Shown here: one piece after another, positions 166 to 50,273 of the stretch
Numbering within the stretch: position 1 is the first letter of the stretch
Layout: every line of letters starts with the position of its first letter
Origin: Draconibacterium orientale
Lineage (GTDB): Bacteria > Bacteroidota > Bacteroidia > Bacteroidales > JAADGE01
Reading direction: 5' to 3'
Length of the DNA: 50,944 bases
NCBI GenBank assembly: GCA_020721645.1
Contig: DYMH01000005.1
Span: 1-50,944, forward strand
Position numbers and translations under genes: made by a program
Notes under the pieces: model-generated
What the model was told of the DNA's origin: nothing
Database searches by the model: none
What the model saw: only the letters and a program-made list of their open reading frames with translations

Positions 166-840
166 ATGAAAGAAATCTTTGAATCGTCATTTTCCGGTAT
201 CAACTTGATTCCCACCATACTGTTGGTTTTAGTTATTTTGTATTGGATAACCGTTTTTCTTGGACTTTTAGATACAAGCTCACTTGATGTCGATATTGAT
301 TCGCACGCACATCTCGATTTCGATAACGATAACGATTTCGATACTGACTCGCACCTACAAGGACCAGAAGGCATTGCCGGAGGGCCGAATTTCATTGTAA
401 AAACCCTCCTGTTTTTCAATATCGGAAAAATTCCGTTCATGATACTGTTCAGTTTCATTGCTTTGCCGCTTTGGGTGATTTCACTTCTGATAAATCATAT
501 TTTACACAACAATTCAATCATAGTTTCAATGCTTTTTCTATTACCGGAAATTGTTGTAAGTATGATGATTGCAAAAATTATTACAATACCATTGGTTTCA
601 GTATTTCAAAAAATGGATGTCGAAACCGGCCAATTTGAAGATTTTACCGGAAAAACCGCCGTCGTTAAAATAGCTGTCGATAAAGATCGAGACGGACAAG
701 TTGAACTCACTCGCAACAACTCCAACGTTTTGCTCATTGCCCGCTCTGTAAATGAAACCATAAACGCAGGAGAACACGTTTTAATTATCGAATACAACAA
801 AGAAGAAAAATATTACACTGTCGAACCCTTCAAAATCTAA
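166..840 (+). CDS. NfeD-like membrane protein (YqiJ-type), partner of flotillin
   Basis: N-terminal multi-TM segment, acidic D/N-rich linker and C-terminal OB-fold-like soluble domain (TGKTAVVKIAVDKDRDGQVEL...). Its stop lies 4 bp from the flotillin start. The NfeD-SPFH pairing is a well-established operon pattern. Confidence 0.65.
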   Translation: MKEIFESSFSGINLIPTILLVLVILYWITVFLGLLDTSSLDVDIDSHAHLDFDNDNDFDTDSHLQGPEGIAGGPNFIVKTLLFFNIGKIPFMILFSFIALPLWVISLLINHILHNNSIIVSMLFLLPEIVVSMMIAKIITIPLVSVFQKMDVETGQFEDFTGKTAVVKIAVDKDRDGQVELTRNNSNVLLIARSVNETINAGEHVLIIEYNKEEKYYTVEPFKI

Positions 841-844
841 AACC

Positions 845-3283
845 ATGATTGGAACACTTTTATTTATCGGAAACATTTTAAGCATTGCAGCTATTATTGT
901 CGCAGTCTTTCTGTTAGGTTTCATTGCTTTAATTGTAAAATGGTACAAAAAACCAATTCACGGCAAAGCATTAGTCAGAACCGGACAAGGCGGAACAAAA
1001 ATTACTTTTGAAAAAGGATTTTTTGTTATTCCTGTTCTGCACCGATTGGAAATTATGGACATCACCCTAAAGAACATGACCATTTCTCGTCTCGGAGTCG
1101 ATGGCTTAATTTGCAAAGATAATATTCGTGCCGATATCAAAGTCGCTTTCTTTGTGCGTGTCAATAACACATTGGAAGATGCTAAAAATGTGGCTTTTGC
1201 AATAGGATGCGAACGCGCTTCGGCAAAAGAAACTCTCGAAGGACTTTTTGAATCCAAATTTTCGGAAGCTTTGAAAACCGTCGGAAAACGATTCGATTTC
1301 GCCGATTTATACAACCAACGCGACGAATTTAAAAAAGAAATCCTCACACTTCTGGGCAGAAATCTTAACGGATATTTGCTCGACGATTGTGCAATTGATT
1401 ATCTGGAACAAACACCTCTCGAATCGATGAAAGAACGCAATATTTTGGATGCCGAAGGGATAAAAAAGATCATCGAACTCACATCGACACAACAAATTAA
1501 AGCAAATTTTATTGAGAATGAAAAACAAAAAACAATAAAAAAACAAGATGTTGAAGCACGCGAAATAATTCTCACTTACGAACGTCAATTAGCCGAAAAA
1601 GAAGAAACACAAAAACGTGAAATCGCCAATATCAAAGACAAAGAAAAAGCATTGACAATAAAAGTAACTGAAGAACAACGCGAAATCAGCGAAAAATCAA
1701 GAATATCAGCCCAAGAAGCAATCGAAATCGCACAACAAAACAAAGAACGACAGGTGATTGTTGCCACTTGGAACAAAGACAAAACCGACAAAGAAGAACT
1801 GGAAAAGACTGAAAAAGCGAAGATGCTACAAGTAACGGAACGCGAAAAAGTGATTTCTCTCGCTCAAATTGAAAAAGATAAGGCAATTGAAATCGAAAAA
1901 GCAAAAATTCAGGAAATTATCCGCGACCGAGTCAAAGTTCAAAAAGACGTGGTGATTGAAGAACAAAAAATAAAAGACACCGAAGAATTTGCCACTGCCG
2001 ACCGCGAAAAACGAGTTGCAATTACAAATGCCGAAATGATAGCCGAACAAGCACTCGTTAAACAAATAAAAAACGCCGAAGCAAATAGAAAGGCGACTGA
2101 AATTGACGGAGAAGCCTCCAGAATTGCCGCCGAATACAAAGCAAAACAAAAAATCATAGAAGCCGAAGCTGCATTTTCGGCATCGGGCAAAGAAGCTGAC
2201 GCTATAAAAGTTCTTGCAGAAGCCGAAGCCGCCAAAGAATCGGCACAAGGAAAATCTGAAGCACAAGTGATCGAAGCAAAGGCAATTGCTAATTTAAAAG
2301 ACGGCGAAACAAATGCCAAAATTATTGAAATGGAAGCAATAGCCGAAGCCAAAGGAATTGAAGCAAAAGCAATTGCAAAATCGAAAGAAATCACACTTGT
2401 TACAACAGCCGAAGCAGAAGCTCATTTACAAACCGGTCAAGCAGAAGCAAAAGTTATTGAAACAAAAGGATTTGCCGAAGCCGAAGCTCTCAACAAAAAA
2501 GGCGAAGCCGAAGCTAATATTCTGAAACAAAGAGGATTGTCCGAAGCTCATATTATCAATGTAAAAGCTGAAGCAAACGAAAAACAAGGTTTAGCCGAAG
2601 CAAAAGTAATACAAGAAAAACTGCTCGCCGAAGCAAAAGGTATCGACGAAAAAGCCGTTGCTATGAAAAAACTCGAAGGCATGGGCAAAGAACACGAAGA
2701 ATTTAAACTGAAACTGCAAAAAGATAAGGACGTTGAATTGGCTCAAATCAATATCTGGAAAGACATTGCAGATGCTCAGGCAACCGTAATTTCAGAAGCT
2801 TTGAAATCTGCAAAAATCGACATTGTGGGCGGCGAAACAATGTTCTTCGATAAAATTATCGGCTCAATTACACGAGGAAAAAGCTTGGATAATTTAGTCG
2901 GAAATTCGGAAGTCCTCACTTCGGTAAAAGACCGATTTCTGCCCAATAAAAAAAATGAAAATAGCATTTCACAAAACGAAAAAATATCAACAAAAAGAAT
3001 TGAAACACCAAAAATTGAAGAAAAAAATAATTCTGAATTTTTAGATGATCAAGATGATTTGGACGAAAAACTCAGTAAAACCGAGCAGAAAATCAAAAAT
3101 ATCATCGACCAATACAAATTTCTAATAGACGGCGTTACCGATATGACAATAATTGATGTGCTTGAAACCTTGATTTCTAAATTACCCGATGTGGACACTC
3201 GTAACATTGTTAAAGGATTGATTCATAAAGCAAAAAATGCAGGAATCGGCGATTTATTAGTTAAAAGTTTGGGAATAAAATGA
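845..3283 (+). CDS. Flotillin-like SPFH/band-7 protein (YqiK family), 812 aa with long Ala/Glu-rich coiled-coil tail
   Basis: N-terminal TM helix followed by an SPFH domain (PVLHRLEIMDITLKNMTISRLGVDGLICKDNIRADIKVAFFVRV). Extended EA-repeat coiled coil typical of flotillins. Cotranscribed with the NfeD-like gene. Confidence 0.85.
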   Translation: MIGTLLFIGNILSIAAIIVAVFLLGFIALIVKWYKKPIHGKALVRTGQGGTKITFEKGFFVIPVLHRLEIMDITLKNMTISRLGVDGLICKDNIRADIKVAFFVRVNNTLEDAKNVAFAIGCERASAKETLEGLFESKFSEALKTVGKRFDFADLYNQRDEFKKEILTLLGRNLNGYLLDDCAIDYLEQTPLESMKERNILDAEGIKKIIELTSTQQIKANFIENEKQKTIKKQDVEAREIILTYERQLAEKEETQKREIANIKDKEKALTIKVTEEQREISEKSRISAQEAIEIAQQNKERQVIVATWNKDKTDKEELEKTEKAKMLQVTEREKVISLAQIEKDKAIEIEKAKIQEIIRDRVKVQKDVVIEEQKIKDTEEFATADREKRVAITNAEMIAEQALVKQIKNAEANRKATEIDGEASRIAAEYKAKQKIIEAEAAFSASGKEADAIKVLAEAEAAKESAQGKSEAQVIEAKAIANLKDGETNAKIIEMEAIAEAKGIEAKAIAKSKEITLVTTAEAEAHLQTGQAEAKVIETKGFAEAEALNKKGEAEANILKQRGLSEAHIINVKAEANEKQGLAEAKVIQEKLLAEAKGIDEKAVAMKKLEGMGKEHEEFKLKLQKDKDVELAQINIWKDIADAQATVISEALKSAKIDIVGGETMFFDKIIGSITRGKSLDNLVGNSEVLTSVKDRFLPNKKNENSISQNEKISTKRIETPKIEEKNNSEFLDDQDDLDEKLSKTEQKIKNIIDQYKFLIDGVTDMTIIDVLETLISKLPDVDTRNIVKGLIHKAKNAGIGDLLVKSLGIK

Positions 3284-3292
3284 TTTTTTTTT

Positions 3293-3330
3293 GCGAGAAA
3301 CATATAAATCAGTTTCTCGCATTTTTTTTA
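3293..3330 (+). terminator. Intrinsic terminator after the flotillin gene
   Basis: Hairpin gcgagaaac-N10-gtttctcgc followed by an 8-nt T-run. Confidence 0.6.
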
Positions 3331-3376
3331 TTCTTTACAAATCATTTATAAATTCCAATTTTAAAGCATCACTAAA

Positions 3377-6300
3377 ATGCCTGAAAATACGGAAACAGTT
3401 ACTTCCGAAAATAACACAAAAATCGAACTCGAAGCCGGAACCTACGAAATTATTCGTAAGCGTTTGGATAAATACGGCAACGAGCTAAGCGACAAATTTA
3501 GTTTGCTCAACAACGAACGCCGAAAAGTTTTCGGCTCTGCCGATGCTGCACTCATTGCAACCGAACGAATCATCACCGAAAACAACTGCATTCCGTCCGA
3601 TATGCAACAAGTGGGCAATATGTTCATTTTCGCTTACAATGTTTCGGTTCGCAAAAAAGAAATTGCCGCAGATGATGTTTTTAGTATCTATTCCTACCAA
3701 AATCACACATTTAAAAAAGAACCGCTCGATTTAATTTCCGATACAAGTTTTTTAACAGATTTTGCCGATTTATACAAATATCGCGAAAGCACACGATTTG
3801 TTAAATTTTCAGTTATCGGAATACATTTGTTCATGCTCTTTCGCACCGGAAGCGGTGATACCGACATCAAAGCCTTCAAATGGATAATCGACGGCAATCG
3901 ACTTCGATATGTTGATAACCGAAGCGACCACGAATTTCGTTTCCCCGCACAACACGAATTTTCGTGGACCAAAGCCACACGCGAAATGCACATCACGGGA
4001 AAGCACCCGCATGTTTCAATCGAAAACATTCTTTTTGTGGAAACAGTCGGAGGCGATTTAACAATTAAAGCCGAAAACAATACCGAAACCGGCAGCGGCG
4101 TATATGCCGAACCTGTTGAAAATGCCGACCAAACGCTCGACGATGCCGAATTTTTCTATTCCGTTCTCGGAAATATTATCATTCTAAAAATTCGTCCGTT
4201 CAAAGAAATAGATTACCGCTACATTGTTTACAGCTCCAAAACGAAAAGTGCCGTTCGTATTGATGCAATCAAAGACGCTTGCGTTTTATTGCCCGACAAT
4301 CAGGGAATTATTTTCTCGAACGGATATTATTTGCAAACCGGCGATTTTAAGTTTTTTGAAAATAATTTAAAAAACCTTGTTTTTGAAAAACGAATCGACT
4401 CGCCCAACGGCGAAGACTATATTTACACGTTTTACGAGCGAAACACCCGCTCTTATGTCTTGTTGAAATATAATTTGATAGAACAAAAACTCGACACCCC
4501 GATTATTTGCAACGGATTTTCGATTTTCGAGAACGGAGAAATGTGCAATTTTCGCAGCGACGGCGAGGCAAAGAAACACCATGTAGTTCAAATTTGGCGT
4601 ACAACGTTTTACAGTGCCGATTACGACACGGTTGTCGATAAAACATCGTATCTTTTTAAAATCGGAAACAAAGAACTCGTTAAAGGAATTGCCGAATGTC
4701 GCGAGGTGATTACTTTGCTTGCCAAAGACGATTCTTACACCAATTTGTATATCGAATTGGTACGAAAAACCTCGCAAATTCTCGACAATTATTATTGGAT
4801 TTCGCGAACGGAAACTTTTGAACTCAATATTTCGATTTCGGCAGTGAAAGAAGCCGCCGCTTCGGCAATAGATGAATACGAAAAGGTTGCTAAAATCAAA
4901 AAAAACACCTTACTGCAAACACAAAAAATTACCGGCGAAGCCGACAAACTGTTTGCGGAAATCAAGAACAAAAGTCTTCAAAATATCGAAGATTTTGTTC
5001 AATTGCTTTCACGATTGCGAATTATCAGAGGCGAATTAATTTCTTTAATACAATTAAGATATATCAATATTGAATCGGTTGAAAAATACGAAAAATCTGC
5101 CGCCGATTACAACAACCTGCTTTCGGAATCGTGCGTGGCTTTTTTGCTCGAAGAAACCGCCCTGAATCCGTACAAAGAAAAAGTAAATTTGATTCGAGAA
5201 AATACCGAAAAAATATCAAAAGTTACCGATGCCGATGATCTTGAAAAAGAAATCGGAAAAGTATCTTCGGAACTCGAAATGTTGATAGAAATTGTCAGCA
5301 ATCTGAAAATAAAAGATGCCGTTCAAACAGCCAAAATTATCGACACAATTTCGTCTATATATTCCAATTTCAACAAGATAAAAGCCGATTTGAAACGCAA
5401 AAGAGATGAGCTTTTTTTGCTTGAAGGAAAAGCCGAATTTTCATCGCAAATCAAACTCATTGGGCAAGCCGTTGTAAATTATCTTGATTTGTGTGATGCT
5501 CCCGAAAAAACCGATGAATATCTCACCAAACTGTTGGTTCAAATCGAAGAATTGGAAGGAAAATTTACCGAATTCGACGAATTTGTGAACGAAATAGGCA
5601 TCAAACGCGAAGAAATTCTCGATGCCTTTGAACAACGAAAAATTCAACTCACCGAAAAACGCAGCAAACGCACCGACACCCTCAAACAATCTGCCGAACG
5701 CATTCTTAAAGCCGTTTCCGGACGATTGGCAAAACTCGGATCCGAATCGGAAATCAACGGATATTTTGCTTCGGATATCATGGTAGATAAGGTTCGCGAC
5801 ATCGTTAAAGAATTGTTCGAACTGGGCGACAATGTGAAAGCCGATGATATCCAAAGCAAGTTGAAAACCGCCAAAGAAGATGCTTTTCGGCAGTTGCGCG
5901 ACAAAGTCGATTTATTTGTCGAAGGTGAAGATGTCATTAAATTCGGTCGTCATAATTTCACGGTAAATAAGCAACCGCTGGCATTGACTATGGTCAATCG
6001 CGGCGAAGATATGTTTATTCATCTTTCCGGAACCGGATTTTACGAACGTGTAGAAAACGAAGAATTTTATCAATTGCACGAATTTTGGGCTCAAAATATC
6101 ATTTCGGAAAACGACACCGTCTATCGCTCCGAATATTTGGCATATAAATTTTTAAACGAACAAATAGAAAATAACGAGTCTAAAATCGACGAACTTTTCA
6201 AAGCCGAAGACGCGAAACTTGCCGAAATGCTGCAAAATTTCATGTCGGTTCGTTATTCCGAAGGATACGAAAAGGGCGTTCACGACAGCGATGCTTTGGT

Positions 6301-8266
6301 AATTCTAAAATCATTAATCGAAATTCGTAAAAATGCCGATTTACTTCGATACTCTTCAAAGTCGAGAGCCGCCGCCGAATTATGGTTCAAAGAATTTGCA
6401 CCCAAAGAACAAAAAGAACTTTTGCATGCCCGCCTTCAAGGGATTGGTGCAATTTTAGAATCATTTCCCGGAAGCAATAACTTTAATGACATAAAAAAAC
6501 AGATTGAAAATCAGATTCTTGATTTCACAGTAAAAACAAATATTTTTTCCGGTGATATTGCCGAAGAAGCCGCAGAATATCTGTTTGCCGAATTAACAAG
6601 ATCCGATGTTTTTGTTTTAAACAGCATCGCTTCAAAATTATACACCGATTTCAACGATTTTCTGAAAATCAACTCAAAAACAACATCTTTTAAAACATCA
6701 ACCGACAAACTTAAATCAAATCCGGAAGCCCGATATTTATTGATTAGAGAATGGATAAAAGCCTTCGCCTCCATATCCGACGACAAATCGGTTTTATCAT
6801 ATATCGATGAAGTTGCCGTTACTGTTTTCACAAAATCCTTTGAATCAAAACGCTGTTTAGATGTTACATTGCAAGTGGATTTGGTCGGATTGGAAGGAAA
6901 TCACTCATTAATATCTGATAAAAAATATCATCTGAATTTCAACGAATTTATGCGTCGTTTGAAATATTTCGACACTCAAAAAGTAGTCGGATACAAGAAA
7001 TACACCGAACTTAAAAAACAACTCACCGAAAGTTTTGAAAACGAATTGCGATTGAACGAATTTAAACCTCGCGTAATGAGTTCTTTTGTGCGCAATCGTT
7101 TGATTGATAAAGTATATTTGCCGCTTATCGGAACCAATTTGGCAAAACAAATAGGTACGGCAGGCGAACAAAAGCGAACGGATTTGATGGGTATGTTGTT
7201 GCTGATTTCGCCGCCGGGTTACGGAAAAACTACTTTGATGGAATACATCGCCAATCGGCTCGGAATTATTTTCATTAAAATCAACGGTCCGGCTTTGGGG
7301 CACAGCGTTACTTCGGTCGATCCGCAGGAAGCTCCGAACGCCACCGCGCGCGAGGAATTGATGAAATTGAATTTGGCATTCGAAATCGGCGATAATGTAA
7401 TGATTTATGTTGATGATATTCAACATTGTCATCCCGAATTTTTGCAAAAATTCATCTCTTTGGCAGATGCTCAACGCAAGATAGAAGGAGTTTACAAAGG
7501 TCGAACGAAAACCTACGATTTCAGAGGGAAAAAAGTGTGTATCATCATGGCGGGAAATCCATATACCGAAAGCGGCGATGTGTTCAAAATTCCGGATATG
7601 CTCGCAAACCGTGCCGACATCTATAATTTGGGTGATATTTTGGGCGACAGTCGTGAAGAGTTTTTGATGAGTTATATCGAAAACAGCCTTACATCGAACA
7701 CTGTTTTGAATCAATTGAGCGGAAAAAGCCGAAACGATGTTTACACTTTGATTGATATTGCACAAAACGGACAAAAAGAAGGCATTCAGTATGAAGCAAA
7801 TCACAGCTCGGAAGAAATTAAAGAATACTTGTCGGTTTTAGAGAAACTGCTGAAAATTCGCGAAATTGTCAATACCGTCAACCAACAATACATCTATTCT
7901 GCGGGGCAAGCCGAAGCATACCGAATCGAACCGCCCTTTAAACTTCAAGGCTCGTATCGCGACATGAACAAATTGTCGGAAAAAGTAATGCCTATTTTGA
8001 ACGATGCCGAATTGGAAACACTGATTCTGTCGCACTACGAAAACGAATCGCAAACGCTCACCTCCGGAGCCGAAGCCAATTTATTGAAATTCAAAAAAAT
8101 GACCAAGCGAATCACCGCCGAAGAAGACCAACGGTTTTCGGAAATTATTGCGATATATCAGAAAAACAAACAAACGGATTCCGGAAGCCCAATTGCCTTG
8201 ATTTCCAAGCAAATGGGAGCAATATCACAGGGTTTGGACGGAATTGTTGATGCATTGAAAAAATAA
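3377..8266 (+). CDS. Giant (1629 aa) coiled-coil protein with C-terminal MoxR/AAA_5-type P-loop ATPase domain; N-terminal about 1200 aa of unknown function
   Basis: Uninterrupted 4.9-kb ORF. Walker A LLLISPPGYGKTTL, Walker B IYVDDIQ and an AAA_5/MoxR-like sensor region VCIIMAGNPYTESGDVFKIPDMLANRADIY. Beta-rich N-terminal domain and long predicted coiled coils in the middle. Confidence 0.8.
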   Translation: MPENTETVTSENNTKIELEAGTYEIIRKRLDKYGNELSDKFSLLNNERRKVFGSADAALIATERIITENNCIPSDMQQVGNMFIFAYNVSVRKKEIAADDVFSIYSYQNHTFKKEPLDLISDTSFLTDFADLYKYRESTRFVKFSVIGIHLFMLFRTGSGDTDIKAFKWIIDGNRLRYVDNRSDHEFRFPAQHEFSWTKATREMHITGKHPHVSIENILFVETVGGDLTIKAENNTETGSGVYAEPVENADQTLDDAEFFYSVLGNIIILKIRPFKEIDYRYIVYSSKTKSAVRIDAIKDACVLLPDNQGIIFSNGYYLQTGDFKFFENNLKNLVFEKRIDSPNGEDYIYTFYERNTRSYVLLKYNLIEQKLDTPIICNGFSIFENGEMCNFRSDGEAKKHHVVQIWRTTFYSADYDTVVDKTSYLFKIGNKELVKGIAECREVITLLAKDDSYTNLYIELVRKTSQILDNYYWISRTETFELNISISAVKEAAASAIDEYEKVAKIKKNTLLQTQKITGEADKLFAEIKNKSLQNIEDFVQLLSRLRIIRGELISLIQLRYINIESVEKYEKSAADYNNLLSESCVAFLLEETALNPYKEKVNLIRENTEKISKVTDADDLEKEIGKVSSELEMLIEIVSNLKIKDAVQTAKIIDTISSIYSNFNKIKADLKRKRDELFLLEGKAEFSSQIKLIGQAVVNYLDLCDAPEKTDEYLTKLLVQIEELEGKFTEFDEFVNEIGIKREEILDAFEQRKIQLTEKRSKRTDTLKQSAERILKAVSGRLAKLGSESEINGYFASDIMVDKVRDIVKELFELGDNVKADDIQSKLKTAKEDAFRQLRDKVDLFVEGEDVIKFGRHNFTVNKQPLALTMVNRGEDMFIHLSGTGFYERVENEEFYQLHEFWAQNIISENDTVYRSEYLAYKFLNEQIENNESKIDELFKAEDAKLAEMLQNFMSVRYSEGYEKGVHDSDALVILKSLIEIRKNADLLRYSSKSRAAAELWFKEFAPKEQKELLHARLQGIGAILESFPGSNNFNDIKKQIENQILDFTVKTNIFSGDIAEEAAEYLFAELTRSDVFVLNSIASKLYTDFNDFLKINSKTTSFKTSTDKLKSNPEARYLLIREWIKAFASISDDKSVLSYIDEVAVTVFTKSFESKRCLDVTLQVDLVGLEGNHSLISDKKYHLNFNEFMRRLKYFDTQKVVGYKKYTELKKQLTESFENELRLNEFKPRVMSSFVRNRLIDKVYLPLIGTNLAKQIGTAGEQKRTDLMGMLLLISPPGYGKTTLMEYIANRLGIIFIKINGPALGHSVTSVDPQEAPNATAREELMKLNLAFEIGDNVMIYVDDIQHCHPEFLQKFISLADAQRKIEGVYKGRTKTYDFRGKKVCIIMAGNPYTESGDVFKIPDMLANRADIYNLGDILGDSREEFLMSYIENSLTSNTVLNQLSGKSRNDVYTLIDIAQNGQKEGIQYEANHSSEEIKEYLSVLEKLLKIREIVNTVNQQYIYSAGQAEAYRIEPPFKLQGSYRDMNKLSEKVMPILNDAELETLILSHYENESQTLTSGAEANLLKFKKMTKRITAEEDQRFSEIIAIYQKNKQTDSGSPIALISKQMGAISQGLDGIVDALKK

Positions 8267-8349: not shown

Positions 8350-8544
8350 ATGAAAAAACTTATTTTCCTTTTCTTCGCCGCCTCAATGTTAGCTTGTGGA
8401 AATTCGCCCTGCGAAAAGAAAACCTGCAAAGATTTTAAAACACAAAAAGAGGCACAGAAAACCTATGAGTCTGATAAAGATTGTTACAAAAATCTCGACC
8501 GCGATAACGATGGCAGTGCCTGCGAAGATTTACCGAAGGAATAA
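8350..8544 (+). CDS. Small secreted lipoprotein with Excalibur-type Ca-binding motif
   Basis: Signal peptide ending in a lipobox-like LAC and a DRDNDGSACE (DxDxDGxxCE) motif. Followed by an intrinsic terminator. Confidence 0.6.
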   Translation: MKKLIFLFFAASMLACGNSPCEKKTCKDFKTQKEAQKTYESDKDCYKNLDRDNDGSACEDLPKE

Positions 8545-8548
8545 TTAA

Positions 8549-8574
8549 AGTCGGCAAAAATGCCGATTTTTTTA
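8549..8574 (+). terminator. Intrinsic terminator
   Basis: tcggca-aaaa-tgccga hairpin followed by a 7-nt T-run. Confidence 0.6.
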
Positions 8575-8812
8575 AGTGTCAATTTTTATTTTAATAATTC
8601 TGCTCAGTTATCTTTTAATTGTTACCCGGAATTATTAGGACGGATATTTGAGTAATTGGCAAATAATTATGATAACCTGAAAATTTGGCGACATTTGAAA
8701 TTTGTATATGCTGAGCACGGTCATAAATTATGTTTTACGATTTGTTTAACTATTTGATATTAAAAGCAATCAGCATAACAGCACATCAAAAAATCAACCA
8801 ATAAAAGTATAA

Positions 8813-8955
8813 TATTGTTAATGCTTATCCGCAAAGTCCCCTTAAAAAATTTCATTTATAAAACAGTAATTTTTTATACCGCTAATATGTTTATTGAATG
8901 TATGTTGCAAACTCTCCCTTAACAAAGGGGACCGGGGGTATTTTTATTCAACTTA
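8813..8955. repeat. About 145-bp intergenic repeat element, family 1, copy A. An inverted copy lies at 41641-41794.
   Basis: Near-identical over most of its length to the reverse complement of 41641-41794 (taatgcttatccgcaaagtcccc ... tgtatgttgcaaactc[t/c]ccctt..aagggg ... gggggtatttttattcaa). Contains an internal imperfect hairpin (ctcccttaacaaagggga). Confidence 0.7.
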
Positions 8956-9171
8956 TTAATGTCGGAAGTTTCGCAGTTTGTATATACGAGTCCGGTCTAA
9001 AAAGTATAAAGTTTGAAAGTGAAAAGTGCAAAATCGTTCATAATCAGTAATTTATGTAAAGATGTAAATTTGACTTAAAGTCCTTATTTTCAGTATTATA
9101 ACTTTATAAACTTTCTTCTTTATGACTTTTTAAACTGAACTCATTAATCGTTTTCCAAATTTGAACAATAA

Positions 9172-9207
9172 TAAAAAAAGTCGGCATTTCGCCGACTTTT
9201 TTTTTAT
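9172..9207. terminator. Bidirectional intrinsic terminator downstream of the EF-G paralog
   Basis: A-run, agtcggc-atttc-gccgact hairpin, then a 9-nt T-run. Confidence 0.65.
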
Positions 9208-9218
9208 TCAATTATCAA

Positions 9219-11375
9219 TTACTCTTCTCCCAATTCAGCTTCATGTTCTTTAATTAATTTTTCCTGAATATCGGTCGGCACCTGAGCATATTCGGCAAAA
9301 GCCATCTCGTATGTCGCACGTCCGCCGGTCAAAGAGCTCAGTGTCGTTGAATATTTGTTGAGTTCAGCCAAAGGAATTCGAGCTTTTATCACTTCAAAAC
9401 CTTTAATACTGCTCATTCCCATAATAATTGCACGTCTTCCCTGCAAATCACTCATCACATCTCCCATACGATCTCCCGGAACCATCACATCAACATCGTA
9501 AACAGGTTCCAATAATTTAGGCGAAGCTTTTTTAAAGGCTTCCGAAAAAGCTTTTGCGCCCGCCAATTTAAACGAAATTTCGTTGGAATCAACATCGTGC
9601 ATTTTTCCAAAATAAACACTTACACGAATATCACGGGCATAAGAACCTGTTAATGGACCAAATTCCATTTTCTCATTGATTCCTTTAATAATTGCCGGCA
9701 TGTAGCTGGCATCAATAACGCCACCGACAATACAATTATAAAAAATAAATTTTCCGCCCCACGGTAATTCAAATTCTTTGGTATCTCGAACCGAAACTAC
9801 ATATTCTTGATTGTTAATTTTAAACACTTTGGGTGCCGGTTTGTCATCGGCATAAGGCTCTATTATTAAATGAACTTCACCAAACTGTCCGGCACCGCCC
9901 GATTGTTTTTTATGGCGATAATCGGCTTGTGAAGGTTTGGTAATGGTTTCGCGGTACGGAATTTTCGGGGCAATAAATTCAGCGGCAATTTTAAATTCAT
10001 GGTCCAAGTACCATTTCAAAGTATTCAGGTGGTGTTCGCCCTGTCCGTGGATAATGAGTTGTTTTAATTCTTTTGAATATTCGAGTATCCATGTCGGGTC
10101 TTCATCATGCAATTTATGCAAAATTTCACCCAGTTTTTCATCATCGGCTTCGCTAACAGCTTTTATGGCTGTTCTGTATTTTGGGTTTGGAAATTCAAGA
10201 GGAGGAAATTTGAACTCTGTACCTTTTTCGCATAAAGTATGTTGAGCTTTTACCGTTTTTAATTTAATGGTAGCACCAATGTCGCCAGCCACAAGTTTTT
10301 CAACTTTGGTTCGTATTTTCCCATTCACTGCAAAAAGTTGAGACAGTCGCTCTTTGGCTTCTTTATTCATGTTGATTAAATCATCGCCTTCGGCTATTTC
10401 GCCCGACATGACTTTAAAGAACAAGATTTCGCCCAAATGTTGTTCAATGGTATTTTTAAAAATATAAACAGATTTTTTCCCCTTTGAATCGCATTTTACA
10501 TTTTTCCCGTCAGCTGTAACAGCTTCCGGCATCAAATCGGGCGATGGAACTGTGTTTGCAAGAAAATCGAGCAAGCGGCGTGTCCCGAAATTACTTCGGG
10601 CTGCTGTGCAGAAAATCGGAAACATTCCGCCGGTAATCAATCCTTTGGTAATGCCTTTTCGCATTTCTTCCTCAGTCAAGCTGCCTTTTTCAAAGAAAAT
10701 CTCCATTAAATTTTCATCATTTTCTGCAGCCGACTCGATCAACGCATTATGCAATTCAGTGGCTCGTTCTTTTTCCGATTCCGGTATGTCTGTTATCTTT
10801 GGTTCGGCTCCCGCTTTATCCCATGTGTACATTTTCATGGTTATCACATCGATGATTGAATTAAACCCAATTCCTTGATTAACAGGAAATTGAATGATTG
10901 CTATTTTATTGCTTAAGCGTTCTTTGATTTCGTCAACGGTCTTTTCAAAATTTGTCTTTTCGTGGTCCAAATGATTCACAACCATGATAACAGGAACATG
11001 ATGTTTTTCTGTCAAACGCCATGCCGATTCTGTTCCCACTTCAATACCATTTTGTGCATTTAGAACCAATACCGCAGCATCACTGACACGTAATCCCGAA
11101 ACAACGCCTCCCACAAAATCACCGGCACCGGGCGTATCTATTATATTTATTTTTTTATCAGCCCACAATGTGTGCAAAACTGTCGATGATATCGAACCAC
11201 CTTGTTCCTGTTCAATCACCCTGTAATCGGATACTGTGGTTTTCAAAGCTATATCGCCGATTCGGCTTATCAGTCCGCCTTCAAAAATCATGGCTTCAGC
11301 CAATGTCGTTTTGCCGGAACCTGCATTTCCTATAAAAGATAAATTCCTAATTTCATTCGTTTGATAGACTTTCAT
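9219..11375 (-). CDS. EF-G-like translational GTPase paralog (718 aa) with degenerate switch II
   Basis: Full five-domain EF-G architecture. G1 GNAGSGKTT. G3 is DTPGAGDF instead of the canonical DTPGHVDF. G4 is NHLD instead of NKxD. Divergent from rpsL. Confidence 0.8.
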   Translation of the reverse strand: MKVYQTNEIRNLSFIGNAGSGKTTLAEAMIFEGGLISRIGDIALKTTVSDYRVIEQEQGGSISSTVLHTLWADKKINIIDTPGAGDFVGGVVSGLRVSDAAVLVLNAQNGIEVGTESAWRLTEKHHVPVIMVVNHLDHEKTNFEKTVDEIKERLSNKIAIIQFPVNQGIGFNSIIDVITMKMYTWDKAGAEPKITDIPESEKERATELHNALIESAAENDENLMEIFFEKGSLTEEEMRKGITKGLITGGMFPIFCTAARSNFGTRRLLDFLANTVPSPDLMPEAVTADGKNVKCDSKGKKSVYIFKNTIEQHLGEILFFKVMSGEIAEGDDLINMNKEAKERLSQLFAVNGKIRTKVEKLVAGDIGATIKLKTVKAQHTLCEKGTEFKFPPLEFPNPKYRTAIKAVSEADDEKLGEILHKLHDEDPTWILEYSKELKQLIIHGQGEHHLNTLKWYLDHEFKIAAEFIAPKIPYRETITKPSQADYRHKKQSGGAGQFGEVHLIIEPYADDKPAPKVFKINNQEYVVSVRDTKEFELPWGGKFIFYNCIVGGVIDASYMPAIIKGINEKMEFGPLTGSYARDIRVSVYFGKMHDVDSNEISFKLAGAKAFSEAFKKASPKLLEPVYDVDVMVPGDRMGDVMSDLQGRRAIIMGMSSIKGFEVIKARIPLAELNKYSTTLSSLTGGRATYEMAFAEYAQVPTDIQEKLIKEHEAELGEE

Positions 11376-12829: not shown

Positions 12830-14944
12830 ATGGCAACACCGCTACAACATACGAGAAACATTGGCATAATGGCACATATCGACGCCGGTAAAACGACGAC
12901 GACTGAGCGTATCTTGTATTATACCGGTATTACCCATAAACTTGGCGAAGTACACGATGGTGCTGCCACCATGGATTGGATGATTCAAGAACAAGAACGA
13001 GGCATTACCATTACTTCTGCAGCAACGACAACCTATTGGAAATTCAAAGATATTGATTATAAAATTAACATCATTGACACTCCGGGACACGTCGATTTTA
13101 CCGTTGAAGTAGAGCGTTCGCTCAGAGTTCTCGATGGAGCTGTTGCAATTTTTTGTGCCGTCGGCGGTGTTGAACCTCAATCGGAAACCGTTTGGCGACA
13201 AGCCGACAAATACAATGTACCTCGCATTGCATTCGTGAACAAAATGGACCGTACCGGAGCCGATTTTTTTAAAGTTCTGACTCAAATTGAAAAAAGGTTA
13301 GGGAGCAATCCAATACCAATGCAAATACCAATCGGAGCAGAAGATAATTTTACGGGAGTTATCGACCTTATCGAAAGAAAAGCAGTTGTTTGGAAAGAAG
13401 ATGATACTTTGGGTGTCAATTACGAAATACAACAGATACCGGAAGATTATAAAGAATTAGCAGAAGAATGGCGCGAAAAATTGGTCGAAGCTGTTATCGA
13501 AACCGATGATGATTTATTACACCGTTTTTTCGAAAACAGAGACAACATCACCGTTGAAGAATTTATGTCGGCAGCTCGAAAATGCGTCATTACAAGAAAA
13601 ATTGTTCCCGTATTTTGCGGAGCAGCTTTCAAAAATAAAGGCATTCAGCGTTTGCTCGATGCAATTACGCAACTTCTCCCATCGCCCTTAGATATTGAGG
13701 CTGCAAAAGGGACAGAACCGCATACCGAAAAAGAAATATTAAGACACCCCAATGCCGATGAACCTTTTGCTGCATTAGCTTTTAAAATAGCAACCGATAA
13801 ATTTGTCGGACGTTTGGCTTATTTACGAGTTTATTCGGGCGTTCTCAAAGCAGGTTCTTACGTTTTCAATCCCCGTACAAAAAAGAAAGAAAGAATTTCA
13901 CATCTCTACCAAATGCACGCCAACAAGCAAATTTCGATAGAAGAAATTTCAGCAGGTGATATTTGCGGTGCTGTTGGTTTTAAAGATATACGCACAGGTG
14001 ATACACTGTGTGCCGAAAATAAACAAATTGTTCTGGAATCCATGACATTTCCCGAGCCGGTCATCGGAATTTCAGTGGAACCTAAAACTCAAAACGATAT
14101 TGATAAATTAAGCATCGCTTTATCAAAACTCTCCGAAGAAGACCCAACATTTGTTGTAAAAGTTGATGATGAAACAGGGCAAACCATTATCTCAGGAATG
14201 GGCGAATTGCACTTAGAAATATTAGTAGACCGACTGAAACGCGAGTTCAATGTTGAATGTAACCAAGGAAAACCACAAGTTACATACAAAGAGTCCATAA
14301 CAAGTGTAGTAGAATACCGAGAATTATTCAAAAAACAATCAGGAGGGAAAGGTAAATTTGCTGATATAACTGTCAGAGTTTCACCCTGCGACACTCAAAT
14401 CAAAGGTCTTCAATTTATTGATGCAACAAAAGGCGGCGTAATTCCAAAAGAATATATCCCTGCAATAAAAAAAGGCTTTGAACAAGCCATGAAAAACGGA
14501 CCTGTGGCAGGTTTTCAAATGGACAGTTTAAAAGTAGAATTACTCGATGGAACATTTCACCCTGTTGATTCAGATTCTTTATCATTCGAAATTGCAGCAA
14601 AATTAGCTTTTAAAAATGCAAGCATACAAGCGGGAGCTGTTCTGTTAGAACCGATTATGAATCTTGAAGTTATTACAGCCGATGAATATGTTGGCGATGT
14701 AATATCCGACCTCAACAGACGACGCAGCCACATTGGAGGAACCGAAGAAAGAGGAGGAGCGCAAGTTGTTAAAGCCAAAGTCCCATTAGCCGAACAATTC
14801 GGATACGTAACTGTTCTCAGGTCCATTACATCAGGACGCGGTTCGGCTACGATGGAGTTTTCACATTTTCAACAAGTTACTGAAAATATATCCAAAAGTA
14901 TTATTGAAAAAATTAAAGGAAAATTTACATTTATAAACATATAA
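12830..14944 (+). CDS. fusA: Elongation factor G
   Basis: [15 protein letters not shown] and DTPGHVDF motifs, 704 aa, in the canonical str-operon position. Confidence 0.95.
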
Positions 14945-33763: not shown

Positions 33764-36700
33764 TTAGACGAATCTTAAACCAACAACCGTTATATCATCG
33801 CGTTGTTCTTCGCTTATTTGAAAGTCGGACAATGCTTTTTCGATTCCGTTGAGTTGCTCTTTCATCGGGAGTTCGGCGTGTTTATTTATTAATTCTGTAA
33901 ATTTATCGAAACCGAATTTTTCGCGTTCTTTGTTGTTTTGGTCGGCAAATCCGTCGCTGCTAAGGTAGAGAATATCGTTTTGGGCAGCTTCAAATTCTAA
34001 ATCCGAAAAAACAAGCTCTTTGTTTCGTGACAGAAATCCGCCGATATGTTTTCGACTGCCTTTGAGTCGTTCTAATGTTTTTGTTTCCGATTTATAGTAT
34101 AATAAACTGATTTTTGCTCCCGAAAAGACAATTTTATACAAATTTTCGGTATTTTTCTCGATTCTGCAAAGAGCAATATCCATTCCATCGTTATTATCGC
34201 CGGTTTCTTGATTGAGCGATAACCGAACACCTTGGTCGAGGGCTACCAAAATTTGCGAGGGTTGATAAATGTGTTCGTCTTTCACAATTTCGTTTAGTAA
34301 CCTACTGCCTATCAGCGACATAAATGCACCGGGGACACCATGCCCCGTGCAATCGACTGTGGCAAAAAACAGATATTCTTTCCCTTTTTCATACTCCGAT
34401 TTAAAAAACCAATAGAAATCGCCTGAAACGATATTTCGGGGTTTGTACAAAATAAAATTCTCGAAATAGGAATCGAGTTGTTTTTTTTGTGGAAGTATCG
34501 ACTGTTGAATGGTTTTAGCATATTTTATACTGCCCATTATCAGTTCGTTCTGCATTCGGACTGTTTCGTTTTGTTCGCCGAGTTGAACAATAATTTCAGC
34601 TAGAGCATCAGACTGGCTTTGTATTTCTTCTTTTTGCACTTCAAGTTCTTCATTTTTTTGTTCTATTTCTTGGGTACGTTCTTTTACCAATTGTTCAAGA
34701 TGTATTTTTTGTGCTTTGATTCGGTTTATCCTGCTTTTCAGAAACGAATAGATTAAACCCACCACACCTACGAACACCAAGATACGAAACCACCATTCTG
34801 CCCAAAAAGGAGGCTTTACGATAATATCAATTTCTGTCCCCAGTAAATTCCATACCCCATCACTGTTCGAGCCTTTCACCTTAAAAATATAATGACCTGG
34901 GTCGAGATTGGTGTAAGTCGCCGTTCTGTTTTTTGCATCGGTATAAATCCAATCCTTGTTGAACCCCTCCAATTTATAAGCGTATTTGTTGTTTTCGGGT
35001 ACGCTGAAATGAAGAGCCGAAAATTCAAAAGAAATAACTTTATCGTTAAAATTGAGTATAATTTTTTTTGTTTCTGTGATACTTTGTTTTAAAAGCGAAT
35101 TATAGCCAATTTTAATTGAGGTATTGAACATTTTGAAATCGGTTATCACAACCGGCGGAAAATATGCATTATCTTGGATATTTGCAGGATAAAACGCATT
35201 GAGACCGTTGATTCCTCCGAAAAACAGCTCGCCCGAAGACGATTTGCAGGCTGCTCCCCAAAAAAATTCGTTGCTTTGCAAGCCGTCACTTTCATCGTAG
35301 TTTGTAAATTTTTCGGTTTTGACTTCAAATTTCGACAAGCCTTTGTTGGTACTCAGCCACAAATTGCCGTTATTTTCATCGAAAACTGCATAAACCACAT
35401 TGTTCGACAAACCATTGCTTTGTGTATAGTGTTTGAAAATATGTTTATTATTTTGAATTTCAATTTTATTCAAGCCACTGCCGAATGTTCCTGCCCAAAT
35501 GACATTATTTTTGTCGATATACAGTGAAATGATGCGGTTGTCGTTCAAACTTGCCGAATCTTTTTCGTTGTGTGTAAACAATTTAGATTGATAATTTCCA
35601 TTATCGGTTTTATATATTTTGTGCAGTCCGCCCCACGAACCAACCCATATATTTCCTTGCCTGTCTTCTTGCATCGCCCCTTGAATATTTCCTTTCTCGG
35701 TGTTCGGAAAATTGATAATGTGCAAAAATGTGTTTGATTTTTTATCGAAAACATCAACACCGCCTGCTGTTCCAATCCAGATTTTGTGGTCGGAACTTTC
35801 AAATATTTTTTGTATCGTATTGCTGATGAGTCCCGAATTTGATTGTATTAAATGCTCAAATTGAACGATTTTTGTTTTATCGGTTTCCGAAAAAATTGCT
35901 TTCTGAATACCACCGTTCCAAGTTCCAATCCACAAAATGCCTTCACTGTCGCGAAGAATTGATGAAACGGTATTGTCGTAGAGTGTTTTTTCATCGTAAG
36001 GAATTTTTTGGTAGCGGTCTATTTTGTTGGTTTTTCGGTCGAATCGAACCAAACCGCCTTCCACATAGCCAATCCACACAATATCATTGCTTTCGGCAAA
36101 AACAGAACGAATTGTTTTATCAGGCAACGAGTTGTTGCTGAGTGAATTGCTGTATTTGTAGAGTTTAAATTTTTTCGATAAAATATCGAATTTATTCACA
36201 CCGCGTTCCCATGTGCCAATCCAAATAATTCCTGCCGCATCTTTGTACAGTGAAGCTATGTTGTTGTGACTTAGACTTTTTGTATCGAAACTGTTGTGCT
36301 GATAGGTGTAAAACGTTGTTGTTCTTGGGTCGAAAAGGCTTACGCCATCGCTGGTTCCAATCCACACAAATCCCTGAGAATCTTCCATTATTTTTAGTAC
36401 CACATTATTGCACAATCCGTTTGGTTGATTTGCATGATAGGCGTATTTTTTAAATGTTTGGGTTTTCGGTTCAAAAATGTTAAGTCCTTCGCGGCTTCCA
36501 ACCCAAATTTGCCCGCGACTGTCTTCATAAACACAGGGCAAAAAATCGTTCGATAAACTGTTATTATCTTTTGGGTTGTGTTTGAAATGTGTAAATTTTT
36601 CGCTACTCGGATCGAACATGTCTAATCCGCCATTTGTGGCTAACCACAACATTCCTTTTTTATCGATAACAATATCGTTTACTTCGTTTTGACACAAACT

Positions 36701-37243
36701 GTTTTCATTATTTCGGTTATGTTGATAGGATTTGAATGTTTTGTTTTTTTTATCGAATCTGTTCAGTCCTCCGCCTTCGGTTCCAATCCACAGAATGCCG
36801 TGTTTATCTTCGGCAATGCAGCGAATGCTATTGTTACTCAGGCTATTGATGCTGTTTGGCTCGTGGATAAAGCGGGAAAAAGTTTCGGAATTGCGATGAA
36901 ACAGATTTAAACCGTTGCCAAATGTACCTACAACCAATACCGAATCCTTGGTTTCATAAATCGCTTTGATGATGTTGCCCGAAATGGACAAACTGTCGTT
37001 TTTAGAGTTTTTATAGATTTTAAAATTATAACCGTCGAAACGGTTCAGCCCATCGTGCGTGCCGAGCCAAATAAATCCTTTGTGGTCCTGACAAATTGCA
37101 AATACGGAGCTTTGCGACAAGCCTTGTTCTATGGAAATATGTTCAAATTGAACATTAAAATCTTGTGCTTTTACATTTTGCCGGAACAAAAAAAAATGAA
37201 AAATAATGCTGATAAAAATTAAAAATTTCAATTTTTGGAACAT
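33764..37243 (-). CDS. Sensor phosphatase: signal peptide, periplasmic two-component-regulator beta-propeller repeats with Y_Y_Y domain, one TM helix, coiled coil, and a C-terminal PP2C/SpoIIE Ser phosphatase. Start chosen at the signal-peptide Met; the track ORF extends to 37333.
   Basis: More than 12 Reg_prop-like repeats (...WIGT..GL..FD...). Y_Y_Y motif GHYIFKVKGSNSDGVW. TM WWFRILVFVGVVGLIYSFL. PP2C motifs SGDFYWFF, DCTGHGVPGAFMS and SSDGFADQ. Confidence 0.85.
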   Translation of the reverse strand: MFQKLKFLIFISIIFHFFLFRQNVKAQDFNVQFEHISIEQGLSQSSVFAICQDHKGFIWLGTHDGLNRFDGYNFKIYKNSKNDSLSISGNIIKAIYETKDSVLVVGTFGNGLNLFHRNSETFSRFIHEPNSINSLSNNSIRCIAEDKHGILWIGTEGGGLNRFDKKNKTFKSYQHNRNNENSLCQNEVNDIVIDKKGMLWLATNGGLDMFDPSSEKFTHFKHNPKDNNSLSNDFLPCVYEDSRGQIWVGSREGLNIFEPKTQTFKKYAYHANQPNGLCNNVVLKIMEDSQGFVWIGTSDGVSLFDPRTTTFYTYQHNSFDTKSLSHNNIASLYKDAAGIIWIGTWERGVNKFDILSKKFKLYKYSNSLSNNSLPDKTIRSVFAESNDIVWIGYVEGGLVRFDRKTNKIDRYQKIPYDEKTLYDNTVSSILRDSEGILWIGTWNGGIQKAIFSETDKTKIVQFEHLIQSNSGLISNTIQKIFESSDHKIWIGTAGGVDVFDKKSNTFLHIINFPNTEKGNIQGAMQEDRQGNIWVGSWGGLHKIYKTDNGNYQSKLFTHNEKDSASLNDNRIISLYIDKNNVIWAGTFGSGLNKIEIQNNKHIFKHYTQSNGLSNNVVYAVFDENNGNLWLSTNKGLSKFEVKTEKFTNYDESDGLQSNEFFWGAACKSSSGELFFGGINGLNAFYPANIQDNAYFPPVVITDFKMFNTSIKIGYNSLLKQSITETKKIILNFNDKVISFEFSALHFSVPENNKYAYKLEGFNKDWIYTDAKNRTATYTNLDPGHYIFKVKGSNSDGVWNLLGTEIDIIVKPPFWAEWWFRILVFVGVVGLIYSFLKSRINRIKAQKIHLEQLVKERTQEIEQKNEELEVQKEEIQSQSDALAEIIVQLGEQNETVRMQNELIMGSIKYAKTIQQSILPQKKQLDSYFENFILYKPRNIVSGDFYWFFKSEYEKGKEYLFFATVDCTGHGVPGAFMSLIGSRLLNEIVKDEHIYQPSQILVALDQGVRLSLNQETGDNNDGMDIALCRIEKNTENLYKIVFSGAKISLLYYKSETKTLERLKGSRKHIGGFLSRNKELVFSDLEFEAAQNDILYLSSDGFADQNNKEREKFGFDKFTELINKHAELPMKEQLNGIEKALSDFQISEEQRDDITVVGLRFV

Positions 37244-37559
37244 AAGCTTCGTATTTGGATTTTTTAGAGTAATCGCAACCTGTTTGAACAGAGAGTAAAA
37301 TCCTTCGCAAACGTTTGAATTGTATCCTATCAAAAAAAAGATATTTACAAAGGGTTTATCGTAAATTTACTTTTATTTTTTAAAGATAAAAATTATCTTA
37401 ACAATAAATTAATATGTTTATTATGAAATGGTAATATTTTCAATTGAATCATGACGAATTCATATTTCTCGTGCAATTCAAAATATATATTTATTAAACA
37501 ATATTTATTTTTTTTGATACGATATTTTTGTGCAATTTTGTGATATAACTTAAAAGAAT

Positions 37560-46163: not shown

Positions 46164-46575
46164 AATATTTTTTTTAGTGGTTCGATAATATGTGAAAATA
46201 TGAAAATTAGAAAACAGGTAAAATGTTGAATTACAATAAATTAATAAATAATGCTTGTTTTTTATATTATTGATTATGTGATAAATATAGGTTTGTAACT
46301 TAGTAATTTTTAATTGGGTGAAAAGAAAAAAAGTCATGTTCTTTCTTTCTATACTTCGTTATATTTTTATATCTAACAGAATATTAGTAAATTACAGATA
46401 TTTTGTCTCGCAAAGACGCTAATTATTCAAGATCAACGTCTTTGCGTGCTTTGCAACTTAGCGAAAAAAAAAATGCCGAACTATTATGGTTCTTCGTCAT
46501 TTTATGTGGGTAAATTTTAAAGATAAGTATGTAATTATTTGAAATTATGGTGTTTAGAACTTATTTTTAAGAATA

Positions 46576-47152: not shown

Positions 47153-47192
47153 ATTATCAATTATCAATTATCAATTATCAATTATCAATTAG
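47153..47192. repeat. Perfect heptanucleotide tandem repeat (aattatc)x5 plus a partial unit, in the hydA 3' UTR
   Basis: Direct reading. The units begin 2 bp after the terminator T-run and end at the hydA stop codon. Confidence 0.9.
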
Positions 47193-48976: not shown

Positions 48977-49089
48977 TTTATTAGTTTTTAGATATGAGAT
49001 TTGAGACACAAGACGCAAGATATGATTTCGGAAATTATTTAATTTTACAGTAATATTTCTAAAATCTAAAATCTTGATACTTTTGTCTG

Positions 49090-50253: not shown

Positions 50254-50273
50254 GGTTTTTTCCTCCGAATTAA

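Follow-up and report, generated by a model that had tools for sequence, protein, structure and literature searches.

The window analyzed here is the 50,944-bp contig DYMH01000005.1 (assembly GCA_020721645.1) of a metagenome-assembled genome of Draconibacterium orientale, taken over its full length. Three adjacent genes on the + strand were found near its 5' end (166-8266), with the contig starting only 165 bp 5' of the first of them. Gene 1 (166-840, +) encodes a short NfeD membrane protein of the YqiJ/YuaF-like type (224 amino acids, aa), gene 2 (845-3283, +) a YqiK-like flotillin of the SPFH2 type (812 aa), and gene 3 (3377-8266, +) a giant soluble ATPase of the DUF3686/DUF7902 family (1629 aa). 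Genes 1 and 2 are spaced by 4 nt, and the 93-nt gap between genes 2 and 3 (3284-3376) carries a hairpin followed by eight T residues (3292-3329, +) that resembles an intrinsic terminator. Hydropathy analysis indicated three or four membrane segments in the product of gene 1, a single N-terminal one in that of gene 2, and none in that of gene 3. An earlier note, made from the sequence alone, had recognized the same three open reading frames (ORFs) and had proposed an uncharacterised membrane-associated system. The three genes were confirmed at these positions, and the triad is an instance, in abbreviated form, of a module that was predicted in 2024 and has partly been studied as the bac operon.

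Conservation of the gene triad

Relatives of gene 3 were encoded in at least 584 loci when one genome per species was scanned. The best 80 loci were kept with up to 10 kb of flanking sequence, and synteny was counted among the 62 loci that have at least 3.5 kb of upstream sequence. In 59 of these 62 loci, the gene directly upstream of the ATPase gene is flotillin-like and has the same orientation, and a YqiJ-like gene was detectable upstream of the flotillin-like gene in 52. The counted loci span the Bacteroidota, Planctomycetota, Verrucomicrobiota, Desulfobacterota, Clostridia, Kiritimatiellota, and Fibrobacterota. The triad was also observed in Ilumatobacter and Streptomyces (Actinomycetota), in the Gammaproteobacteria (including Pseudoalteromonas and Proteus), and on the plasmid pQBR103. 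Full-length identity between phyla is 45-57%, and the spacing from the flotillin gene to the ATPase gene often falls within -10 to 130 nt. Clustering of the neighboring ORFs of all 80 loci returned just the three triad families as generally conserved. A synteny with membrane proteins that is maintained at this frequency across phyla is not a matter of chance. The earlier note had named ATPase homologues that never co-localize with SPFH or NfeD genes as evidence against a conserved membrane-associated system; the opposite pattern was found, and that proposal stands.

Small genes were found inserted between the flotillin and ATPase genes in several loci, including L007 (9524-9946), L009 (9344-9901), L041 (9510-9929), and L071 (9550-9924), and up to four small ORFs occurred at this junction in L016 and L036. 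Judged by eye from their sequences, the inserted genes look like DUF559 endonucleases and GxxExxY-type proteins. The junction appears either to tolerate insertions or to act as a landing site.

An operon joining a CesT/Tir-PspA dyad with three other proteins was described by Ravi et al. (2024; mSystems, PMC11237479). The three proteins are a YqiJ/YuaF-type component with three transmembrane segments, a flotillin component that combines a transmembrane segment with a band-7 domain and a coiled coil, and a large ATPase. Gene 1 has the features of the first and gene 2 those of the second, and gene 3 agrees with the third in its AlphaFold2 models and in its propeller and AAA+ matches. All three architectures recur in the same gene order, and no difference in kind was observed. 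It is very likely that the triad belongs to this PspA-associated flotillin/YqiJ/AAA+ operon type, as its abbreviated form, and "uncharacterised" was an overstatement given that the operon had already been published. The published account is purely computational and favors a chaperone-like role in assembling membrane-linked complexes; abbreviated operons without the CesT/Tir-PspA dyad were reported to be more widely distributed, and they may work with a PspA encoded elsewhere (PMC11237479). Added to that operon here are the DUF3686/DUF7902 family names, the MoxR-class fold, the invariant DD Walker B motif, the 59/62 synteny count, and the intergenic hairpin.

The dyad was found directly upstream of the triad, as a CesT/Tir-like gene followed by PspA, in about 20 Bacteroidota loci, and the triad is likewise joined to both genes in some Proteobacteria. 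The corresponding clusters of neighboring genes were identified as CesT_Tir_1/YbjN-like (c5, E = 8e-54) and PspA_IM30 (c3, E = 1e-36), and a divergently transcribed regulator with HTH and S24 domains (c4, LexA-like) lies ahead of the CesT_Tir_1 gene. For example, an annotated Hymenobacter plasmid carries, in this order, genes for a LexA-family regulator, a Tir chaperone, PspA, DUF1449, a hypothetical protein, and a DNA repair ATPase. In four loci, DUF4178, DUF350, and a membrane spermidine-synthase gene were located downstream of the triad, and polyamine-linked yjf-like genes flank the cassette in some loci. On pQBR103 of Pseudomonas fluorescens SBW25 (L087; NC_009444.1 85452-104248), the triad comes right after a PspA-yjfKLMC-like block, such that the full order is PspA, rhomboid, DUF2491, DUF350, DUF1190, glutathionylspermidine synthase, YqiJ-like, SPFH, and DUF3686 ATPase, with an MvaT/MvaU-family gene 3' of it. 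The module can therefore be plasmid-borne. A tblastn search of the 50.9-kb window returned no PspA and no CesT/Tir, where an upstream dyad could have been lost beyond the nearby contig start. The two closest relatives on long contigs are also without PspA and CesT/Tir, and because the dyad is missing from all three, the window triad was classified as the abbreviated form.

The order of genes 1 to 3 is also that of bacC, bacD, and bacE in the Pseudomonas aeruginosa operon bacABCDEF (PA3732-PA3727), which is co-transcribed and for which a sigma-54 site was proposed from the bacA promoter sequence (PMC10948618, PMC13086221). In this operon, BacA is a DUF2170 CesT/Tir-like protein, BacB is PspA, BacC is a short NfeD protein, BacD is the flotillin PaFlo3, and BacE is annotated as an "ATPase involved in DNA repair" (PMC10948618, PMC13086221). 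All bac products were up 6- to 13-fold in a bacA mutant, mutations of bacA and bacB affect biofilm, rhamnolipids, and virulence, and the authors themselves map bac onto the six-gene operon of Ravi et al. (PMC10948618, PMC13086221). The window differs in that it includes no equivalents of bacA, bacB, and bacF, and in that its organism is an anaerobic member of the Bacteroidota. On the basis of the published annotation and the authors' own mapping, rather than an alignment of BacE, the triad appears to be the equivalent of bacC-bacD-bacE.

Architecture of the three proteins

Neither gene 1 nor gene 2 was matched by Pfam at E values up to 10, including the NfeD (PF01957), DUF1449, and YqiJ models for gene 1 and Band_7 (PF01145) for gene 2. 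NCBIfam gave no match for gene 1 and, across both genes, just a stray coiled-coil match to FloT. Since Pfam was silent on both, their assignment needed profile comparison, and profiles were built from the orthologues that adjoin gene 3 homologues (52 orthologues in the case of gene 1). By hhalign, the gene 1 profile was aligned to E. coli YqiJ over its full length (probability 96.3%, E = 1.7e-9) and weakly to B. subtilis YuaF (PDB 2k14) in the C-terminal domain (E = 0.044). The Hymenobacter orthologue of gene 1 carries the label "DUF1449 family protein." Hinderhofer et al. (2009) regard YqiJ and YuaF as the NfeD proteins that partner the flotillin-like SPFH2 group, and their treatment here as NfeD homologues follows that work. 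Its product includes hydrophobic segments at residues 17-35, 76-109, and 118-136 by hydropathy, a conserved acidic DxDxD loop at residues 36-62, and a C-terminal soluble domain at residues about 150-224.

Gene 2 was placed in a similar manner. Band_7 was matched by seven of 56 gene 2 orthologues (best E = 8.8e-15), and the flotillin-like profile and E. coli YqiK were aligned by hhalign across 389 columns, the SPFH domain among them, with a probability of 100% (E = 1.9e-42). A tblastn search with the flotillin-like protein against yqiK gave 27% identity (E = 5e-32), and relatives of gene 2 are labeled "flotillin family protein" or "YqiK" by NCBI and JGI. The protein consists of an N-terminal transmembrane segment (residues 13-31, hydropathy), an SPFH domain (residues about 40-225), a coiled coil rich in E, A, and K (17, 16, and 15%; residues about 225-640), and a C-terminus with a conserved cap region and then a low-complexity tail. 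Most of the listed relatives are about 711-723 aa long, compared to 812 aa for gene 2, and the extra length is due to the E/A/K-rich region and the C-terminal tail.

By profile comparison, genes 1 and 2 encode a divergent NfeD-flotillin pair of the YqiJ/YqiK type. The earlier note had been correct about a long flotillin with an EA-rich coiled coil and about the kinship of the pair, while its wording of a "textbook" NfeD/SPFH operon does not suit two proteins that Pfam failed to match. The E. coli YqiJ-YqiK and B. subtilis YuaF-YuaG (FloT) operons share homology in both proteins, the two-gene order, and the membrane topology class with the window pair. In contrast, neither operon includes a third ATPase gene, and the next features in E. 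coli are the sib/ibs loci. The window flotillin is also longer than its counterpart in the YqiJ-YqiK-type pair (812 versus 553 aa) and too divergent for Pfam Band_7.

More than 4388 homologues of gene 3 were identified. Nearly all are collinear and have lengths of 1600-1900 aa, and many go by the name "DNA repair ATPase." The N-terminal domain of the family forms 690 clusters at 50% identity. The N-terminal 1200 residues or so, which the earlier note could not assign to any family, were found to include two Pfam domains: the beta-propeller domain DUF3686 at residues 36-473 (3482-4795, +; E = 9.1e-172) and DUF7902 at residues 595-678 (E = 1.7e-25). AlphaFold2 models were built from a 37-sequence alignment across several phyla and had a mean predicted local distance difference test score (pLDDT) of about 84. 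They predict a long helix ahead of the propeller (residues 22-52), an all-beta N-terminal domain over residues 58-408, and a helical middle region (4796-7093, +). This middle region contains long helices (residues 425-846, including DUF7902), a small beta domain (residues 853-891), and a helical domain (residues 917-1152), in which a GVHDxDA motif (residues 967-973; window 6275-6295) is invariant or nearly so across several phyla and may possibly form a metal or ligand site. A search of PDB sequences with a profile of residues 846-1235 returned nothing below E = 0.09. No paper was returned by a full-text literature search for DUF3686, and no biochemical or structural work on the DUF3686 ATPase was found in the literature.

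Foldseek matched the beta domain to the propellers of the clathrin heavy chain (terminal domain), IFT-A, nucleoporins, prolyl oligopeptidase, and WD40 proteins, where the matches were statistically significant at template modeling scores (TM-scores) of 0.1-0.35. A specific resemblance of the N-terminal 1200 residues to coat proteins was considered and rejected, as scores in this range reflect a generic propeller-plus-helix similarity.

The C-terminal part of gene 3 is composed of an AAA+ alpha/beta core of the MoxR/midasin/dynein type (residues about 1240-1420; 7094-7636, +), followed by the AAA+ lid and a C-terminal helical extension (7637-8263, +). The motifs quoted in the earlier note were all located in the translation, namely Walker A (PPGYGKTT, residues 1279-1286), Walker B (YVDDIQH, residues 1344-1350), and the sensor-1 region (IIMAGNPYTES...PDMLANRADIY, residues 1389-1416, with N1394 as sensor 1). 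Additionally, R1412 is a putative arginine finger, and an invariant motif, EPPFKLQGSYRxMNK, at residues about 1518-1532 contains a putative sensor 2, R1528, assigned from the GxSxR pattern of MoxR proteins. A fold search placed the AAA+ core closest to the AAA modules of MoxR, midasin, and dynein, and not RuvB, with the MoxR maturation factors CbbQ and NorQ among its best structural matches. In the model, a hairpin (model residues 188-201) is positioned between the Walker B and sensor-1 strands, and a conserved loop without a hairpin occupies the helix-2 position. When an AAA+ profile was searched against PDB sequences, the matches to p97 and RuvB extended over just about 40 residues at the P-loop, which did not resolve the clade.

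The Walker B motif of gene 3 departs from the canonical hhhhDE form with its catalytic glutamate, and contains D1346-D1347 (window 7412-7417) instead. Neither residue varied in the alignments of 23 and 46 sequences, and both were at least 90% conserved in the 37-sequence alignment, which included Actinomycetota and Proteobacteria. The DD motif presumably resembles the DDIQ motif of the DnaA/DnaC type more than that of MoxR proteins. A Walker B of DD rather than DE suggests a slow, switch-like hydrolysis and not a fast unfoldase.

ATPases of the MoxR group normally require a vWA/MIDAS partner. The window encodes none next to gene 3, as the earlier note had observed; no vWA domain was present in Pfam scans of the neighbors tested, and none was conserved across the 80 loci. 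Gene 3 shares the NP sensor-1 and L..R arginine-finger patterns and, as predicted in its model, a beta-hairpin ahead of sensor 1 with midasin and with the MoxR-vWA systems CbbQ-CbbO, NorQ-NorD, and RavA-ViaA. It differs from those systems in the missing vWA/MIDAS partner, in the DD Walker B, in an AAA+ domain preceded, within one polypeptide, by a propeller and helices of about 1240 residues, and in a conserved partner that is an SPFH scaffold. Judged from the models, the AAA+ domain of gene 3 is of the MoxR/AAA_5 class that the earlier note had suggested, with the DD Walker B and the absence of a conserved vWA neighbor as its departures.

Intergenic hairpin and surrounding genes

The terminator-like hairpin that the earlier note had placed ahead of the ATPase gene was recovered in the 93-nt gap. 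It is composed of a perfect 10-bp stem (3292-3301 with 3312-3321) and a 10-nt loop, and it is followed by the T8 tract (3322-3329). The folding energy was -14.1 kcal/mol (z = -6.27), and none of 200 shuffled sequences was as stable. A consensus terminator scan misses this hairpin because its loop limit is 8 nt; for the window as a whole, the promoter and terminator consensus scan gave counts not above those of shuffles. Among the first 22 orthologous gaps scored, a comparable hairpin with a T-run was found in four, and it is therefore no general property of the locus; a relative with 69% identity has 1 nt between its flotillin and ATPase genes. The hairpin is a possible attenuator, in which case the stem and T-tract would lower expression of the ATPase relative to a scaffold needed in many copies.

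The ATPase gene is followed by a gene for an Excalibur-domain lipoprotein and then by one for an EF-G paralogue. The former (8350-8544, +) starts 84 nt past the ATPase gene and encodes a predicted lipoprotein of 64 aa with an Excalibur calcium-binding domain (Pfam E = 1.4e-6). A common calcium theme is possible between this lipoprotein and the acidic DxDxD loop of the YqiJ-like protein. The following segment of about 670 bp (8545-9218) includes no ORF of at least 80 aa and no Rfam match, and is flanked by terminator-like hairpins of the - strand at 8551-8566 and 9173-9203. The Rfam scan of the whole window gave 0 matches.

Two genes of the EF-G family were observed, a 718-aa paralogue (9219-11375, -) and the canonical fusA (12830-14944, +), which comes after rpsL (11911) and rpsG (12333). 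The S10/spc/alpha ribosomal operons come next, through secY (24195), rpsD (26716), and rpoA (27340). The neighbors of the triad in the window are thus the str/S10/spc/alpha ribosomal operons and not a defense island. Further downstream, a 1189-aa protein (33764-37333, -) carries Reg_prop beta-propeller repeats, a Y_Y_Y domain, and, at its C-terminus, a SpoIIE/PP2C phosphatase domain, a place more usually taken by a histidine kinase in sensors of this kind. A gingipain-like C25 peptidase with a C-terminal sorting domain of the type IX secretion system is encoded at 43818-46337 (-), and an [FeFe]-hydrogenase large subunit is encoded beside a NuoF-like flavoprotein at 47189-50343 (-), a pair that resembles a bifurcating hydrogenase. 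The sorting-domain peptidase and the hydrogenase together point to an anaerobic member of the Bacteroidota.

Proposed function and its alternatives

The explanation that we favor is an envelope-stress operon, PspA-less in this window, in which the giant ATPase remodels a flotillin scaffold; we estimate its probability at roughly 55%. The module is probably used to cope with membrane stress, a role that the earlier note had raised and that is favored by the PspA and CesT/Tir genes joined to the cassette in the Bacteroidota loci described above. PspA is an ESCRT-III-family polymer of membrane repair, and SPFH proteins assemble with NfeD partners into cages anchored in the membrane, as in QmcA-YbbJ and HflK/C. 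Following these solved cages, the flotillin and its NfeD-like partner would form a membrane-anchored cage or microdomain at the cytoplasmic face. The ATPase would dock on this assembly via its propeller or helical stalk and oligomerize through its AAA+ domain. AAA+ rings remodel protein assemblies, and nucleotide binding and hydrolysis by the ATPase may assemble, remodel, or dismantle the flotillin scaffold at a stressed membrane. We consider this remodeling mechanism about an even bet.

Where PspA is co-encoded, the ATPase might act on PspA polymers as well, in a role analogous to that of Vps4 on ESCRT-III or of FtsH inside HflK/C. Both comparisons are functional analogies only: HflK/C-FtsH combines an SPFH cage with an AAA+ machine, and ESCRT-III-Vps4 combines a polymer of the family to which PspA belongs with an AAA+ remodeler. 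Gene 3 is soluble, of the MoxR class, and without a protease, whereas FtsH and Vps4 both belong to the classical clade of AAA proteins, and FtsH additionally has a membrane anchor and a protease domain. According to a 2025 review, PspA appears to have no Vps4-like partner in bacteria. A more specific proposal, put forward tentatively and on balance doubtful, casts the DUF3686 ATPase as the bacterial counterpart of Vps4 or FtsH that has been missing for membrane scaffolds: a MoxR-class motor that would dock by its propeller on the cytoplasmic flotillin cage and spend ATP on opening, moving, or recycling flotillin, together with co-encoded PspA, in membrane repair.

Several observations weigh against the favored explanation. 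The window itself encodes no PspA or CesT/Tir, and the PspA link comes only by homology to other lineages. The strong terminator-like hairpin parts the flotillin and ATPase genes, which makes their co-transcription in Draconibacterium orientale uncertain. The catalytic glutamate of Walker B is replaced by aspartate, such that robust ATP hydrolysis is uncertain, and no vWA/MIDAS partner is conserved near gene 3, though MoxR ATPases normally need one. The ATPase gene occurs without the pair in three of the 62 loci (L017, L023, and L034), with neither gene within 7-10 kb upstream. Single or multiple deletions of the paFlo flotillin genes of P. aeruginosa caused no pronounced phenotypic changes (PMC10948618, PMC13086221). 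As a separate observation, the region upstream of the ATPase gene in L023 contains several small unidentified ORFs of about 100-200 aa on both strands.

Among the alternatives, the strongest is a client chaperone or scaffold of the MoxR style. In this view, the task of the AAA+ ring would be the maturation or insertion of a specific client protein or cofactor within a flotillin microdomain, the propeller and the stalk of helices would provide a coat-like tether, and the nucleotide would switch assembly. The proximity of the AAA+ core to CbbQ and NorQ agrees with such a role, as do the slow, switch-like hydrolysis suggested by the DD motif, the weak Foldseek matches of the propeller-plus-helical layout to clathrin, IFT-A, and nucleoporins, and the chaperone-like function in assembling membrane-linked complexes favored by Ravi et al. 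(PMC11237479). The neighborhoods, in contrast, revealed no conserved client candidate or vWA/MIDAS adaptor, but just the NfeD-like and flotillin-like genes, and the low TM-scores of the Foldseek matches speak for a generic propeller. We regard the client chaperone as unlikely, at about one chance in five.

An anti-phage system of the abortive-infection type that senses infection at the membrane, the alternative named in the earlier note, is more improbable still. PA3728-PA3732 are up-regulated in phage-infected P. aeruginosa, a copy of the module resides on the megaplasmid pQBR103, small and apparently mobile genes sometimes lie between the flotillin and ATPase genes, and large nucleoside triphosphatases with repeat domains are common in defense systems. 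However, an induction by phage would be expected of a "phage shock" envelope response in any case, and the order and sequences of the triad are conserved across phyla (45-57% full-length identity), unlike the patchy and fast-evolving genes of defense. Searches of PADLOC-DB v2 returned no significant match for the triad: the best were P-loop-level matches of the AAA core to mad8 (E = 3.5e-4) and IetA (E = 1.5e-3), and genes 1 and 2 matched nothing. No homologue was found among 50,697 phage records, PHROGs gave just a clamp-loader P-loop match, and the triad, which in the window has ribosomal operons as neighbors, was found to contain no effector domain, be it a nuclease, protease, TIR, pore, or another kind.

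Least probable by far, at the level of a few chances in a hundred, is that gene 3 is a DNA repair ATPase whose place beside the flotillin pair has no functional meaning, as the Pfam text of DUF3686 ("ATPase involved in DNA repair"), the NCBI names of its relatives, and the weak P-loop-level matches to RuvB would have it, since the RuvB and p97 matches are confined to the P-loop, Pfam, Foldseek, and PDB profile searches found no DNA-binding, nuclease, or helicase domain, the fold search grouped the AAA+ core elsewhere, the synteny with membrane proteins holds across phyla, and the name, with no DUF3686 paper behind it, is without a traceable experimental basis.

For the window itself, the significance of these results is modest: it adds one more instance, from an anaerobic Bacteroidota metagenome-assembled genome, of a module known from comparative genomics. 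For the family, thousands of database entries carry the "DNA repair ATPase" label without support from sequence, structure, or context, which probably misleads annotation-based analyses. For the assembly and disassembly of bacterial flotillin cages and of PspA/ESCRT-III polymers, the triad offers a specific and testable candidate, and it occurs in tractable organisms, including P. aeruginosa (bacE), Flavobacterium, Hymenobacter, Streptomyces, and Proteus. If the more tentative proposal of a counterpart of Vps4 or FtsH is true, the module would be the first case of an SPFH cage served by its own non-proteolytic AAA+ engine, and gene 3 would represent the first MoxR-type ATPase working without a vWA adaptor.

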